Assembly (NCBI GenBank): GCA_951406725.2
Contig: OX597814.1
Span: 80,042,001 to 80,106,000, forward strand
Direction: 5' to 3'
From: Octopus vulgaris
Taxonomy: Eukaryota
DNA length: 64,000 nucleotides
The translations under genes were made by a program, and so were the position numbers. The notes under the pieces are model-generated. The model was not told the DNA's origin, ran no database searches, and worked only from the letters and a program-made list of their open reading frames with translations. Shown piece after piece: positions 2,031 to 54,109 of the stretch (position 1 is the first letter of the stretch; each line of letters begins with the position of its first letter).

Positions 2031-2113
2031 ATTCGACGGTCGTTTCGGGAGTCCATTAGTCAGCAGGTGTGAATCATTTAGATTCCCACTGACTTGTCCC
2101 CTTCATCAGGAAT
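2031..2113 (-). ncRNA. Type I hammerhead ribozyme, canonical core, extended stem II, GUC site
   Basis: Minus strand reads AUUC-CUGAUGA-A-GGGG..AGUCAGUGGG-AAUCUAAAUGAUUC-ACA-CCUGCUGACU..UCCC-GAAA-CGACCG-UC-GAAU; stems I, II and III all pair. Confidence 0.85.
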
Positions 2114-3142
2114 AAGTAAATAGAAAATTAATCCAGTTTGAAGGCATGTAAGAGAAAGGAAAGAAAAGAAGGAAATTTTTTGTTACATTACGTTAGTCGT
2201 CGGCTACTCCATTAGATACTAATCACGTTTACGATTATTCACGCTACAAGATTATCTAGTGGTTTTGGGAGTTATCAAGATGTCCATGCCCCTGTACACT
2301 ACAGCCTACCTCTTATCATTAGTGTCACATTTGTCAGTAAGGTGCCGATGAGCTAAGATTCAACATCCAAACCATTTTTTTTTAAAGATACGCCATTCCA
2401 CCGTTTTTATTTCTTCTGTGTTTTTTACTCGGGAGCCGACCTTAGTCCAGGGTCTCTCTATTGCTCGCAATTCTGCCAATGCTCTTGTTGCTGACTTCAT
2501 TGCAAAGTTTTCGGTCATCGCTGCTTGTTTGTAACGGGGAATAGAAGTTTGTGCTTACAAACGTGTCCGTTTCTAGAATTGTCGTTTTCCTACGCCATTC
2601 TGAATGTGTAGCTGCCTGGTTTCGCAACCATATCCTTTTGTTTGATTGCTATAACCTTTTCTGTTTGTCTTTTCTTTTTCATAGTCTTTGTTTTTATTTT
2701 CAACATTTTATGAAATTCTTATGGGTGTATTCATTGCTGCCACGTTACTGGAGAGAATTTCTTACAGGTACGCCAATACGATACGGCCATTAAAATACTA
2801 CAAGTGAACAAAAGTTTGCAGAAATATAAGATGTAAAAATGTCTGAGAACATAACTTATTTTCCCATTACATGGTTAACGAGGCAGAAACTCGAAAGTTC
2901 CAAAGTACCTTGTGAACAAAACGAAACAAAAACATTAGTTTTCTGAAACAAGATGTAAGTATCTGTGCATGTGTTTTTGTGTGTTAGAGTTGCAAGTGTG
3001 AGACAGAAGGTGGTTTATTGGCTGGTGTTAGTAAAACATCGTAAAACCCAAAAATAAACCGGAGCTACGTCAAATAAGTTGGTTCACTACAATAAATAAA
3101 ACCAATTATTATAAGAATAATGATAACACTGATGTTGAATAC

Positions 3143-3326
3143 CATCATCATCATCATCATCATCATCATCAGTAATAGTAGTAGTAGTGGCGGTAGTAGT
3201 AGTAGTAGTAGTAGTAGTAGTAGTAGTAGTAGTAGTAGTAGTAGTAGTAGTAGTAGTAACAGCAGCAGCAGTAGCAGCAGCAGCAGTAGTAGTAGTAGTA
3301 GTAGTAGTAGTAGTAGTAGTAGTAGT
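3143..3326. repeat. (CAT)n/(AGT)n/(AGC)n trinucleotide microsatellite
   Basis: Direct observation. Confidence 0.97.
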
Positions 3327-3600
3327 CCCAGCAGATTATTTCTCAAAGAAATGCGGAAATTATCCAAATATCTGGACATGGGGAAAACACGAACTGGAGA
3401 GAAGAGGCTGAAAATAGAAATAATCCATATATTAATAGAAGCTATAGGAATGGTAGAGAGGAATAAGCCAACTAATATACACAATATGCGGGAAATAGCT
3501 TTTCTACGCACTGCACGCTAAGTAATACAATAGAAAGAGTAAGACAAAAATACAACAGAGAACATACCCAAAGGCTTCAAACTGAAAGTCAGAAGAATAA
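3327..3600 (+). mobile_element. Decayed 3' end of an R4/Dong-like RLE LINE
   Basis: KEMRKLSKYLD...IGM...TNIHNMREIAFLRTAR resembles KEMEKLSKYKDL...TNTYNIQKIALLGTAH of the 13-17 kb copies; ends in AATAAT. Confidence 0.75.
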
Positions 3601-3724
3601 TTTCATAAAACCGCATCAAATATTTGATTGGAACTTATTTTGTCAACCTTGGGAATATGAATTCCATGTTTCATTCTAATTTTATTCTTCGTTCAAAACC
3701 TCATGTGGCCAATTTTATTCTGTT

Positions 3725-4090
3725 ATTCCTTGACTTGTTTCAGTCATTTGACTACGGCTATGCTGGAGCACTGCTTTAAAGAGTTTTTAGTCGAAGAAAT
3801 CGAGCCCAGGACTTATTCTTTGTAAGCCTACTATTATTCTATCGGTCTTGTTTGCCGAACTGCTAAGTTACAGGGTTGTAAACACACCTGCATCTGTTGT
3901 CAGTTGATGAAGGGTGGGGTGCAAACACAAACACACACACACGCACACACACACACACACACACACATACACACACATATATGTATACACACACATATAT
4001 ACGATGGGCTTCTTTTAGTTTCTGTCTACCAAATCCACTCACAAGGCTTTGGTTGGCTCAAGGCTATAGTAGAAGACATTTGCCCAAGGT
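3725..4090 (-). mobile_element. SINE family A, 5'-truncated, internal (CA)n
   Basis: Homology to the other family A copies on both sides of the internal microsatellite. Confidence 0.9.
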
Positions 4091-4122
4091 TGGAAAATTG
4101 TGTGACAGTTTGGGAACTAGAT

Positions 4123-4525
4123 GCGGGCGTGGCTGTGTGCTAAGAAGTTTGTTTCTCAACCACTTGGTTCTGGGCTCAATCCTACCGCGTAGCATTTTAG
4201 TCGAGTACCTTTTATTATAGCCTTCGTCAACCAATGTTTTGTGAACGGATTTAGTAGGCGGAAACTGAAAGAAGCCCGTTTTACATATGTATACCTGTGT
4301 GTGTCTACTTGTGCTTGTGTTTGTCCCGTCACCACTACATATATGCACATAAATCCAAATCGTGTGTGTGTCTTAAACAAACGATCACCGGTTCGGCAAA
4401 AAAGGCCACTAGAATAAGTACCAGTCTAAAAATAAATACTCCACTCCATTCGTTCGACTAAGACCATGCAAAGTGGTGCACCAGCATGACCGCTACCAAG
4501 TAACTGAAACAAATAAAAGATAAAA
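4123..4525 (+). mobile_element. SINE family A, near full length, head-to-head with the previous copy
   Basis: GCGTGGCTGTGTGCTAAG (A-box-like), GGGCTCAATCC (B-box-like), tail ACTGAAACAAATAAAAGATAAAA. Confidence 0.85.
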
Positions 4526-51407: not shown

Positions 51408-51705
51408 AAAGTGCAAGAAATTTTCTTAACTGCTACGTCACATGTACTGAGAAGAGCATTGTCGTTGTGAATTTTCTTTTTCCCCCTTTATTTTCTTTGT
51501 TTAATTTTTCATATTTTTTTTTCCTTTTTCTCTCTGTCTTTCTTCTCCTTTTTCTCTATCACATGACTTTGTAAATGAACATTCAGGTGTCTTTATTTTA
51601 ATGGCCTACCAATGTATACAATGAGTGTCTCTGCCCTAGGTGTCAGGAAGACACCCGACAAGAAATGGAAACAATTGAAAGAAGTTGATAATGATTGCAT
51701 AATAA
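51408..51705 (+). mobile_element. 3' tip of the second R4/Dong-like family
   Basis: KVQEIFLTATSHVLRRALSL*; 3' UTR matches the reverse complement of 18970-19040. Confidence 0.85.
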
Positions 51706-51834
51706 TAATATTATTGCAGGTGGAAGAGAAATTGTCCAAGTTAACATCATGAAGAGAATCCTCCAAGAAGACTCTGGTGATACCTTTACTATTTACTGTT
51801 AGTGTTAGCACGTTATCACATTCCATGGTTGAGG

Positions 51835-52800
51835 AAATATGGTAACTGTTATAGAATTGAAGAGAGGGCGAAAAGTAAACAGTAGTGGAGTACAACTACC
51901 AGATGATGAGCGGATAAGAGAAGAAAATGGAGCGGGTTACAATTTTCTTGGTTTTTGTCAATTAGGTCAGATGAAAAACATTAAGATGCAGAAAATTGTA
52001 CCAGAAGAGTTAAAAACAATTATCGATGTAAGCTGAATGGAAAGAACATTTTTAAAAGCATCAATCAACACGTGGGCTTTTTAAGGTGCGATCCGTTACT
52101 ATGCAGGAGTTTTGGAATGGACAATGAAAGAACTGGTCAACGTTGATAGCAAAACTAGCAAGGCAGTGGTTATGCATGGATGCTTTCATATTAGAAGTAA
52201 CATCGCAAGTCTTTACTTAACTAGGAAGCAAAGGATTGGTTGGAAAAGTGCTATGAAGATCAAGTCTTTGTATGCTAATCTGAGAAATAGTTATGAAAGA
52301 ATGTTGCAAGCTGTACTGAATGAGAAGGTGATCAATGACAATAATAAGACCCTCCATGGATTCAAAATGAGGACTAATTGAGAAAAAGTCATCAACTGGA
52401 AAGAGGAAGTCTTACACGGAGTAGTTCTCCAAAACAAACATCGGATGGAGAAGAATTCTAGAGATGGTTAAGACATGTTTTAAACAAGGAGAGAAAAGGC
52501 TTGATTCTTACTGCTCTAGAACAAGCTTTACAAACCAATTCATAAGACACCAGTATCACCTTTGTGTAAACAATATAAAAAATCGTCTGAAACTGTAAAG
52601 TGTATAATTAATAGATGATCAAAACAGGCCCCAAAGGAGTACAAAAATGCCATAACAAAGTGGTTGTATGAATACACGGGGAGTTGTGCAAGAAGTATCA
52701 GCTAAGTAGTATGAACAAGTAGTATGAACAGCAACCTTTGTCTATTGCAGAGAATGATCAAGTGAAACTCATATGGGATATGCAACAATGCTTGGAACAA
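51835..52800 (+). mobile_element. Heavily decayed R4/Dong-like LINE (post-RT to RLE)
   Basis: IELKRGRKV...GYNFLG, WTMKELVNVDSKT...MHGCFHIRSNIASLYLTRK, ENDQVKLIWDM. Confidence 0.75.
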
Positions 52801-53293
52801 CTCATGAGTAGAGAAAAATGTTGCGTCTCTAATTTGTAGGATGGAGCTGAGACATAACAGATAAATCAGAAGTCAAGTGAATAATATAAACATATATTTA
52901 TACATACATATACATATACATACATACACACGCATACACACACACACACACACACACACACACACACACACACACACACACACACACACACACACATATA
53001 TATGGTTTGTTGGGGCGATTAAAGTCCGTCAGTATATATGTATACAATTATGTGTTTTGGCTACAGCATTAGAGTATATTAGCTCTTATTTCTAGCAATG
53101 TAGGTGTTTTAGTAACAATTATAAGTTTCCTTTTAGGTAAAAACACTGCATACTGCTATCTATATTGATTTGTTGGTTCGATTCTGGCTATGGCTAGCTC
53201 ATCATTTTTCGGTCATTTGTTTGTACTTAAAAATTGGTGCTTCAAATCGGAGAATATATATTATTATTATACAGTTTTATATATATATATATA

Positions 53294-53688
53294 CTAGCAG
53301 TATCGCCCGGCGTTGCTCGGGTTTGTAAGGGAAATAATTATATAAGCATTTTTAGAGATGTAAAGTATAATAGCCATCTCAATATGGCTAACCACAAAGG
53401 GGGAGGGGTGTTACTGTAGCTTTTTACGTTCTGAGATTTAATAATAAATTTTAGAGAGTTACTTCCCTTATATATGTCAAAAATGGATTAAAAATGGGAA
53501 AAATTGATGGTAAATTTTTTTTTAAATCGTAGACTCATCGTAGACGCGCGCTAATACCCAGACGGTCTCGGTATGAATCACGACTATAAGATACCCGGTT
53601 TTGGTTAAACTGCACCGCAAAATGTGGGAGTAGTTAGGAATCTAAATCGTAGGAGACAGACACACAACCTCACTTTTATATATAAAGA
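53294..53688 (-). mobile_element. Non-autonomous Helitron
   Basis: Minus strand starts A|TC and ends CTAG|T, with a subterminal GC hairpin (53306-53321); no TSD. Confidence 0.85.
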
Positions 53689-53785
53689 TTTCCTCTATTT
53701 ACATAATATTGAGGTCTCTTTCTTTCTTTTGTTATCTTACTGTTTTTACCAATATACATATATATATATATATAAATATATATAT

Positions 53786-54109
53786 AGTTACAGAGATGTA
53801 CTTGCATAGCAAGTGACTTGATCTGAGATCGTGTGCTGGAACGAAAACAGTTGCAGCGTTGAAGGTGTTTATAAGCCATTTAAGAAACACACAAAAATCG
53901 TTAGATTCACTTCAACATTTAAATTTAATTTGTCAAAATATTTTCGTCGCTTTGAGACCGCGACCTGTTAGCACGATATTTTTGTCAGTGAACAGGTCGC
54001 GGTCTCAAAGCGACGAAAATATTTTGGCAAATTAAATTTAAATGTTGAAGTGAATGTAACGGTTTTTGTGTGTTTCTTAAATGGCTTACAAACACCTTCC
54101 ATGCTGTAA
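53786..54109. mobile_element. Fold-back element (~119-bp arms 53851-53969 / 53991-54109, 21-nt spacer, ~65-bp tail) in (TA)n
   Basis: Arms are reverse complements with a few mismatches. Confidence 0.9.
53981..54031 (+). ncRNA. Type I hammerhead-like fold, G3-C8 core variant
   Basis: UUUGUCA-GUGAACA-G-GUCGC-ggucucaaa-GCGAC-GAAA-AUAU-UU-UGGCAAA; 7-bp stem I, 5-bp stem II, palindrome AAUAUU. Confidence 0.72.

Follow-up and report, generated by a model that had tools for sequence, protein, structure and literature searches.

The 64-kb window analysed here, a stretch of 64,000 nucleotides of Octopus vulgaris DNA (contig OX597814.1), contains minimal type I hammerheads of the kind found in Penelope-like elements (PLEs), belonging to many families, as had been predicted from the letters alone. 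With a probability of roughly 0.8, they are the ends of unrelated families, left as truncated or inverted copies of PLE tails, which would cut only as dimers or with the help of protein. The motifs are real, and they likely represent the known tail ribozymes of Penelope-type elements; it is established that every PLE family has its own hammerhead in the pseudo-LTR. Two of the cores look odd and are compensatory in the 3-8 pair (U3:A8 at 49062 and G3:C8 at 53981), the most informative feature of the set and one that went unnoticed in the original prediction.

The motif set and its chance level

Seven type I hammerhead folds from six unrelated families had been proposed, and all seven stretches match their description at the coordinates below. 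Their 300-nt neighbourhoods show no mutual blastn similarity, save for the pair at 48254 and 48373; because these two form one inverted duplication, seven folds make six families. All six have, arranged in type I order, a NUGANNA core whose positions 3 and 8 pair, a GAAA, and an NUH; the 3-8 pair is C:G in four families, U:A in one, and G:C in one. Stems I and II can pair around the core in the motif set, with just 3 bp each at 48373 and 49062. An extra nucleotide after A9, together with G10.1:C11.1, is present at 2031, 26030, and 53981 and imperfect at 40044; at 48373 and 49062 the pair is A10.1:U11.1 rather than G10.1:C11.1.

A refined descriptor that accepts any paired 3-8 core, scored against 200 shuffles, finds 8 sites in the window versus 0.62 in the shuffles. 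The same descriptor with a mispaired core, used as a control, finds 1 site versus 1.05. Six of the eight sites belong to the predicted set, one lies at 61626, and one, at 3593, is probably a chance match. The strict CUGANGA descriptor yields 5 matches (mean of 0.1 in 20 block shuffles), one of which, 50952, is a weak fit. These counts bear directly on the notion that the set consists of chance matches in AT-rich DNA, or of by-products of inverted duplications or assembly errors: with two free core mismatches and 3-bp stems, 12 sites are observed against 6 in shuffles, and both 49062 and 3593 are weak individually, but the paired-core count is reached by none of the 200 shuffles. An assembly error could be suspected from the arms at 48 kb, which are 99% alike; however, the 53981 family occurs in thousands of contigs from three organisms, its arms in the window are only about 90% alike, and, against an origin as duplication by-products, every motif folds inside a single arm. 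This account is very improbable and, for the set as a whole, already refuted.

The Rfam hammerhead model RF00163 is built on canonical forms, and no Rfam match at gathering score occurs anywhere in the window; in local scans with E up to 10, run on five of the seven sites (26030, 40044, 48373, 49062, and 53981), no hammerhead family is among the matches listed. In the Rfam search of the window, microsatellite matches swamp the E-value list. Exact family patterns have no match in metagenome, viral, or prokaryotic collections. The candidates at 50952/50970 and 3593-3649 were treated as chance. The repeats at 55.3-55.9 kb and at 1.6 kb have retained both CUGANGA and a GAAA upstream of it, yet fit no hammerhead permutation, and a permutation scan of the window gives 1 match (0.3 expected). 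Half motifs as a class are not above chance (9, versus a mean of 4.1 and a maximum of 10 in shuffles).

Individual loci

The minimal hammerhead at 2031..2113 (minus strand) has the core CUGAUGA with C3:G8, a long stem II, and a near-palindromic stem III; its predicted cut falls after GUC (2035), and it has no TA flank. The motif at 26030..26076 (minus strand; CUGAAGA, C3:G8, 6-bp stem II) is located between trinucleotide microsatellites. For its stems I and II the fold z is -3.0; its stem III is non-palindromic (self-duplex +3.8 kcal/mol) and has likely decayed in this copy, and the motif fails the refined descriptor. At 40044..40103 (plus strand), a CUGAAGA core with C3:G8 and a near-palindromic stem III sits within an element of about 417 nt (39818-40234) with (TA)n on either side.

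The two hammerheads at 48254-48317 (minus strand) and 48373-48436 (plus strand), both with the core CUGAUGA, form a head-to-head inverted pair of one family (48022..48570), with 218-nt arms that are 99% complementary, one of them about 95 nt longer in a tail-like manner. A second inverted insertion of this family, at 47039..47380, has the same short and long 3' ends; it begins about 7 nt past the predicted cut and is without a hammerhead. The minimal hammerhead at 49062..49097 (plus strand) has a UUGAAAA core with U3:A8, 3-bp stems, and a perfect ACCGGU palindrome, and lies in a (TA)n-bounded, U-rich element of about 130 nt. It is the weakest of the six families; its fold is no better than its own shuffles (z 0.07), and the U3:A8 descriptor class has 2 matches, a count reached by 5 of 200 shuffles.

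An eighth hammerhead, overlooked in the original prediction, is found at 61626..61671 (plus strand), with a 6-bp stem I, U3:G8 in this copy, and a perfect 10-nt palindromic stem III; it gives a full-model match to RF00163 of 28.6 bits, below the gathering score of 34. A decayed homologue at 33516..33600 (minus strand) has C at position 3. Besides those at 2035 and 54024, cut sites are predicted at 26035, 40098, 48433, 49094, and 61665.

The G3:C8 family

The minimal hammerhead at 53981..54031 (plus strand) has the core GUGAACA with G3:C8, a 7-bp stem I, the extra nucleotide, a 5-bp stem II opening with G10.1:C11.1, and an AAUAUU palindrome; the predicted cut lies after 54024, at the triplet UUU. 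In the descriptor scan such a G3:C8 motif arises in 0 of 200 shuffles, and the fold has a z of -2.4. An inverted, 5'-truncated copy at 53790..53972 (minus strand) keeps C8 and a perfect 3' strand of stem I, and its 3' end extends about 60 nt further. The element is represented by 9295, 3831, and 6263 contigs in organisms B, C, and D, respectively. At 53988 and 53993 no other letter reaches 5% in any of the three, so G3:C8 is the majority state, the norm of the family; A at 54027, which perfects the 7-bp stem I, accounts for 68-81% of depth. Covariation, followed in this family only, shows a fixed core and no compensatory stem pairs at 5% or above, and most of the common variants within or close to stem II are CpG transitions, the kind of change that neutral decay would produce.

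U3:A8 is already known from nature. For G3:C8, the part of the literature covered gave no natural example, and the pair appears there solely in an engineered rescue mutant. Among the matches listed for loose G3:C8 patterns in viral loci, both stems are found in 0 of 139.

This very abundant family is predicted still to cut, as a putative ribozyme. That it is a very-high-copy short retroelement of at least three related organisms, with a natural G3:C8 hammerhead that still self-cleaves, is proposed tentatively, at somewhat less than even odds. It must be weighed against a dead, non-catalytic fold, in which cleavage has been lost and the shape kept as a protein-binding or reverse-transcription signal. 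In one PLE, insertion in vitro proceeds without hammerhead activity, and the cut site yielded no RNA ends; engineered G3:C8 rescues activity only in part, and most contig depth here runs through the motif uncut, without a step at 54025. However, two separate changes that restore an exact Watson-Crick pair at 3-8 are hard to explain without selection on the active fold, and G5, A6, A9, GAAA, G10.1:C11.1, and UH are all intact beside it; we regard the dead fold as unlikely.

Palindromes, flanks, and inverted arms

Stem III had been described as mostly palindromic or nearly so, which is borne out: the palindrome is perfect in three families, near-perfect in two, and absent from the 26030 copy. 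The stem III regions alone form no hairpin; their self-duplexes have energies of -10.0, -8.3, -6.7, and -3.2 kcal/mol at four sites, and that of the G3:C8 motif (AAUAUU) is very weak, at -0.2 kcal/mol. For comparison, 8 of 9 Xenopus hammerhead dimers tested were without cleavage.

The expected location mostly in (TA)n holds for four of the six families, with (TA)5+ within 135 nt on the 3' side (10% of random sites have such a repeat on one given side at up to 150 nt). Three inverted pairs, near 47, 48, and 53.8 kb, have a tail on one of their arms, and these unequal arms match the PLE insertion pattern. The context of the motifs, with inverted unequal arms, (TA)n, and RT/GIY-YIG remnants, fits the pseudo-LTR ends of PLEs.

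Penelope-like remnants in the window

The RT/GIY-YIG remnants announced for 34-42 kb are confirmed by a PLE profile at 34.2-35.8 and 40.9-41.5 kb, both with the order of EN+ PLEs, a PLE-type RT followed by a C-terminal GIY-YIG. The degenerate PLE at 34200..35794 (minus strand) comprises RT, a CxxC linker region, and the start of GIY-YIG; its 5' part lies inverted on the plus strand (35474-35794). The 5'-truncated PLE at 40404..42135 (plus strand) comprises the thumb, a CxxxCxxC linker, and GIY-YIG at 40860-41548, and is framed by inverted repeats (40404-40828 and 41799-42135) in which the descriptor scan finds no intact hammerhead. A Zn-finger-like CX2-5CxxC linker between RT and EN is seen at 41.16 kb and in P0001/P0002, and this pattern recurs in 123 of 140 relatives; as a sequence pattern, it would be consistent with the Neptune/Nematis clades. 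P0001 has no related loci in metagenomes and no solved relative.

A broken frame at 39059..39498 (plus strand) looks GIY-YIG-like by eye and presumably resembles the endonuclease of another PLE clade; the frame has no homologue and no PLE profile match. About 220 nt behind it, on the same strand, lies a half hammerhead (39718..39752, plus strand) consisting of CUGAUGA and a 9-bp hairpin, with the GAAA side missing. The PLE profile matches neither the region upstream of 2031 nor the interval separating the insertions at 47 and 48 kb, and within the window no confirmed PLE ORF adjoins any of the six motifs. Candidate decayed hammerheads behind the remnants (34020-34125 and 41745-41825) were rejected, with no full topology and z about 0.

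Origin of the motifs

The proposed mobilisation by the particular remnants at 34-42 kb is not supported, as the six motif neighbourhoods share no sequence with them; a simpler reading makes every motif the 3' end of a separate PLE family. The short stem I, the longer stem II, the palindromic stem III, and, at 2031, 26030, and 53981, the extra base before 10.1 with G10.1:C11.1 match the published consensus of minimal hammerheads and speak for PLE tails; against them stand the two confirmed remnants, which have no intact hammerhead behind them by descriptor or fold z, the weak duplex and UUU cut triplet of the G3:C8 motif, the Xenopus dimers that did not cleave, and the 53981 family, whose 5' end seems to be fixed some 15 nt ahead of stem I. 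By analogy with published PLEs (PMC11167929, PMC8557442), the PLE protein would likely nick AT-rich DNA; reverse transcription would then begin behind the ribozyme, at either of two positions, and so give rise to the short and long arms seen here. As it usually would stop or flip soon, mostly the ribozyme-bearing end would be inserted. The individual copies in the window are probably dead and decaying. The three different 3-8 pairs (C:G, U:A, G:C) are likely a trace of selection on the source elements to keep a working core.

The original prediction saw small ribozyme-bearing retroelements. On such a view, some families, above all G3:C8, would be discrete non-autonomous elements (non-LTR retrozymes or solo-pLTR elements) of about 140-210 nt that are self-transcribed, may circularise, and receive PLE protein in trans. 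A separate element of this kind is plausible for the 53981 family, because its 5' end seems fixed, and for none of the others: in all three runs, loose ends before 53980 agree for about 15 letters and then diverge, a pattern more in keeping with a discrete short element than with 5' truncation at random, and in a few contigs the 3' end (54101-54105) is connected to the 5' start, possibly in head-to-tail order. The (TA)n-bounded elements of 130 nt (49062) and 417 nt (40044), and the canonical stem lengths at 61626, point the same way. Yet no motif forms a tandem array in the window, while the definition of retrozymes calls for units in tandem that carry canonical hammerheads, and the sequence link to the 34-42 kb remnants is absent. 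We consider such elements rather unlikely; as retrozymes are reportedly derived from pLTRs, they shade into the PLE-tail explanation that we prefer.

Comparison with known systems

The abundance and diversity of the motifs are no surprise, being already described in PMC4209133, where Cervera and de la Pena (2014) report thousands of heterogeneous, mostly solitary minimal hammerheads per genome, falling into many families and at times paired on opposite strands. As such hammerheads have been in print since 2014, the density and variety seen here are ordinary for a PLE-rich invertebrate genome. The activity of PLE hammerheads in vitro is low, insertion without cleavage is possible in the one PLE studied in vitro, and one review suggests that they might be mere passengers. 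That a double swap has become fixed naturally in so successful a family is evidence of selection on the catalytic fold, and the G3:C8 family offers a ready test set for whether PLE hammerheads do anything; standard CUGANGA or UUGANAA descriptors miss whole families such as this one. If it self-cleaves, alongside C:G and U:A families, catalysis would be selected though dispensable for insertion in vitro, and the inversion joints that cluster shortly beyond the cut site would identify copies derived from cleaved RNA.

The minimal hammerheads of PMC4209133 share with those of the window the type I order, the short stem I, the palindromic stem III, the occurrence in many families, mostly solitary with some opposite-strand pairs, and, at 2031, 26030, and 53981, the extra base before 10.1 and G10.1:C11.1; one variant among them has U3:A8 and the UUGAAAA core that also occurs at 49062. 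G3:C8 is found in 0 of the 56 representatives in their Figure S3 (C3 in 53, U3 in 3), whose descriptors did not seek it; there is no cephalopod among the 56 rows. Six short motifs taken from the hammerheads are absent from the supplement of PMC8557442. Non-LTR retrozymes (Cervera and de la Pena 2020, PMC7229834; Li et al. 2026, bioRxiv 10.64898/2026.07.22.740005) are likewise short non-coding units with a type I hammerhead, for which derivation from pLTRs and movement by PLE proteins have been proposed; they have tandem repeats, canonical hammerheads, and circular RNAs, whereas the window has no tandem unit. A natural compensatory 3-8 change, as here, was reported by Perreault et al. 2011 (PMC3088659), whose section on core variation names U3:A8 only. 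Poseidon PAc of Anolis (Frangieh et al. 2024, PMC11167929) resembles the present case in its pLTR hammerhead, its AT-rich targets, and its two RT start sites, which give an optional tail; protein-assisted cleavage is a property of PAc, and its Poseidon layout differs from the Zn-finger-like linker of Neptune/Nematis type in the window remnants. In PAc an engineered C3G/G8C change partly restores cleavage, so that G3:C8, there a laboratory mutant, is in the 53981 family the natural majority state.

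Hammerhead motifs and their excess over chance

The window consists of AT-rich, repeat-rich animal DNA, and reading the sequence at each site finds all seven hammerhead stretches as originally described, at 2031-2113(-), 26030-26076(-), 40044-40103(+), 48254-48317(-), 48373-48436(+), 49062-49097(+) and 53981-54031(+). The motifs at 48254 and 48373 are the two arms of a single inverted duplication, and apart from this pair blastn detects no similarity among the motif neighbourhoods; the motifs thus fall into six unrelated families, as proposed. A strict CUGANGA descriptor finds 5 matches, where 20 block-wise dinucleotide shuffles average 0.1; a relaxed one (two free core mismatches, 3-bp stems) finds 12 against 6.0. 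Dividing the matches by the pairing state of core positions 3 and 8 resolves this difference: paired cores number 8 against 0.62, a count reached in none of 200 shuffles, and mispaired cores 1 against 1.05. Within the window, the comparison with shuffled sequence that the original prediction had called for comes out in its favour. The Rfam hammerhead models, its other proposed check, give no match in the window at gathering score, and local Rfam scans at five of the predicted sites list no hammerhead.

The eight paired cores comprise six of the seven predicted sites, a weak member at 3593, and an eighth hammerhead at 61626-61671(+), which had been missed. The latter scores 28.6 bits in Rfam (gathering score 34), is closer to canonical in shape, and has a perfect 10-nt palindrome as stem III; a decayed second copy lies at 33516-33600(-). 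The 26030 copy fails the descriptor because its stem III is non-palindromic; its stems I and II nevertheless fold at z -3.0.

Cores, stem III and flanks

The core pair is the standard C3:G8 in four families, U3:A8 at 49062 and G3:C8 at 53981, so that both odd cores retain a Watson-Crick 3-8 pair. On their own, the stem III regions are predicted to form no hairpin; pairing with a second copy is predicted at -10.0 kcal/mol for 48373, -8.3 for 49062, -6.7 for 40044, -3.2 for 2031 and -0.2 for 53981. None is predicted for 26030 (+3.8 kcal/mol), to which the proposed palindromic or near-palindromic character of stem III does not extend. The proposed (TA)n setting applies to four of the six families, which have (TA)5 or longer within 135 nt on the 3' side (10% of random sites do within 150 nt), but neither to 26030, surrounded by trinucleotide repeats, nor to 2031, which has no TA nearby.

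The arms of the inverted pairs differ in length: the longer one carries about 95 nt extra in the 48 kb pair and about 60 nt in the 53.8 kb pair. The 48 kb family is inserted a second time at 47039-47380, with identical short and long end points. This insertion begins about 7 nt beyond the predicted cut, which may mark copying of cleaved RNA, or AT microhomology alone.

The G3:C8 family

Assembled contigs from three organisms (B, C and D) were aligned to 53950-54112, giving 9295, 3831 and 6263 contigs, respectively. At the well-covered positions 53988 (G3) and 53993 (C8), alternative letters all stay below 5% in each organism; C3:G8 copies could be clipped rather than aligned, and none occurs among the 18 loose ends listed (445 more are not listed). 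A at position 54027, which gives stem I seven perfect pairs, accounts for 68, 81 and 78% of depth; the window's own inverted truncated arm, at 53790-53972(-), carries this A and retains C8. Variants in and near stem II reach 4-8%, mostly at CpG sites, and none is compensatory in these contigs. None of 200 shuffles contains a 53981-type motif with stems of at least 5 bp.

Loose ends 5' of 53980 share about 15 letters before they diverge, which suggests a fixed 5' end. Nine of the 13 opposite-strand joints listed, each resting on 1-3 contigs per run, fall at 54028-54036, just beyond the predicted cut after 54024; copies made from cleaved RNA are one possible source, stem I complementarity or AT microhomology another. 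The 5' leader (53966-53980, from the loose ends) is partly complementary to the 3' end at 54095-54106, which could close the short unit as an extended hairpin or make its ends look like terminal inverted repeats. Raw DNA run X22, which carries the species label of the best-matching source, yields 0 reads on a family that is present in thousands of contigs of the three other organisms, and counts as no test.

Penelope-like remnants and other repeats

Of 152 relatives, the 140 measuring 300-820 aa were combined into a profile, which recovers the predicted Penelope-like element (PLE) remnants at 34-42 kb and has no match in the reversed window. It places reverse transcriptase (RT), linker and start of the endonuclease (EN) of the first remnant at 34200-35520(-), with an inverted 5' part at 35474-35794(+). 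The second remnant retains thumb, linker and EN at 40860-41548(+) and has inverted repeats on both sides. Two relatives were found for the frame 34531-34950, their RT and GIY-YIG Pfam matches being weak and under curated cut-offs. The linker pattern, CxxxCxxC, points to affinity with the Neptune or Nematis clade. By eye, a third frame at 39059-39498 resembles a GIY-YIG domain, a putative identity that found no support in homologue or PLE profile searches; half a hammerhead lies behind it. Descriptor scan and folding find no intact hammerhead behind the two confirmed remnants. That these remnants mobilised the motifs is not borne out: none of the six adjoins a confirmed ORF or shares sequence with them.

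A TA-flanked palindromic insertion at 55300-55906 and a divergent relative at 1552-1650 have in common some 65 nt of conserved sequence with GCCGAAA and CUGANGA, which was rejected as a hammerhead as it matches no hammerhead permutation. More palindromic insertions around (TA)n, lacking the core, lie at 57803-58215 and 59853-59907. A non-LTR retrotransposon (RVT_1, zf-RVT) occupies 13289-18897(-) in nested, partly triplicated pieces with (TTA)n/(TTC)n interruptions; two pieces are 97-100% identical, hence recently duplicated or repeated in assembly. Two remnants of mariner-type transposases (PF01359), both with terminal inverted repeats, lie at 8842-10126 and 36160-36804, short tandem arrays at 5104-5589 and 54473-54739, and several dispersed SINE-like families (100-190 nt) have many copies across the window.

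Origin of the motifs

The motifs, their enrichment, the G3:C8 family state, the inverted tailed arms, the TA flanks and the nearby PLE remnants are directly seen, and we favour, at a probability of roughly 0.78, an origin as PLE pseudo-LTR ends. Each family would be such an end or a short derivative of it; the PLE protein would nick AT-rich DNA, copying would start just behind the ribozyme, and truncation and inversion would leave mainly ribozyme-bearing ends behind. Cleavage is predicted to require a dimer or protein assistance, and most present-day copies would be dead. It is possible, if doubtful, that some families are discrete retrozyme-like elements, for which the 61626/33516 family is a candidate. 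Somewhat less probable still is that G3:C8 is a non-cleaving fold. The estimates for these readings overlap.

Comparison with known hammerheads and PLEs

Published PLE insertions include a truncated copy in inverted orientation and may carry a tail of 30-40 nt, which results from the use of two RT start sites (PMC11167929, PMC8557442); the arm extensions here exceed that tail. Further background on PLEs, hammerheads and retrozymes comes from several other sources (PMC8557442, PMC7229834, PMC6765202, PMC6155905, PMC10085705, PMC13725137; 2026 preprint, bioRxiv 10.64898/2026.07.22.740005). In O. vulgaris, PLEs make up 6.83% of the genome and fall into 190 families (PMC13282606, whose available text does not mention ribozymes), so that six to eight pseudo-LTR ends per 64 kb are unremarkable. 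In the giant squid, 235 Rfam hammerheads were counted (PMC6962438); the literature searched, mostly open-access text, yielded no described cephalopod hammerheads.

Minimal type I hammerheads occur in thousands per genome, heterogeneous and mostly solitary, with opposite-strand pairs, U3:A8 cores and low activity (PMC4209133). U3:A8 is the sole natural 3-8 swap named in the available text of PMC3088659. The 53981 motif differs: none of the 56 representatives in PMC4209133 has G3:C8, a core outside its search, and where G3:C8 appears in PMC11167929 and PMC3884650 it is engineered, whereas here it is a natural family state. No description of natural G3:C8 was found in the literature searched, mostly open-access text, so it may well have been reported before. 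The seven motifs are confirmed as an observation and belong to a hammerhead class already known; as far as the literature was searched, the G3:C8 family is new within the known class of PLE hammerheads.
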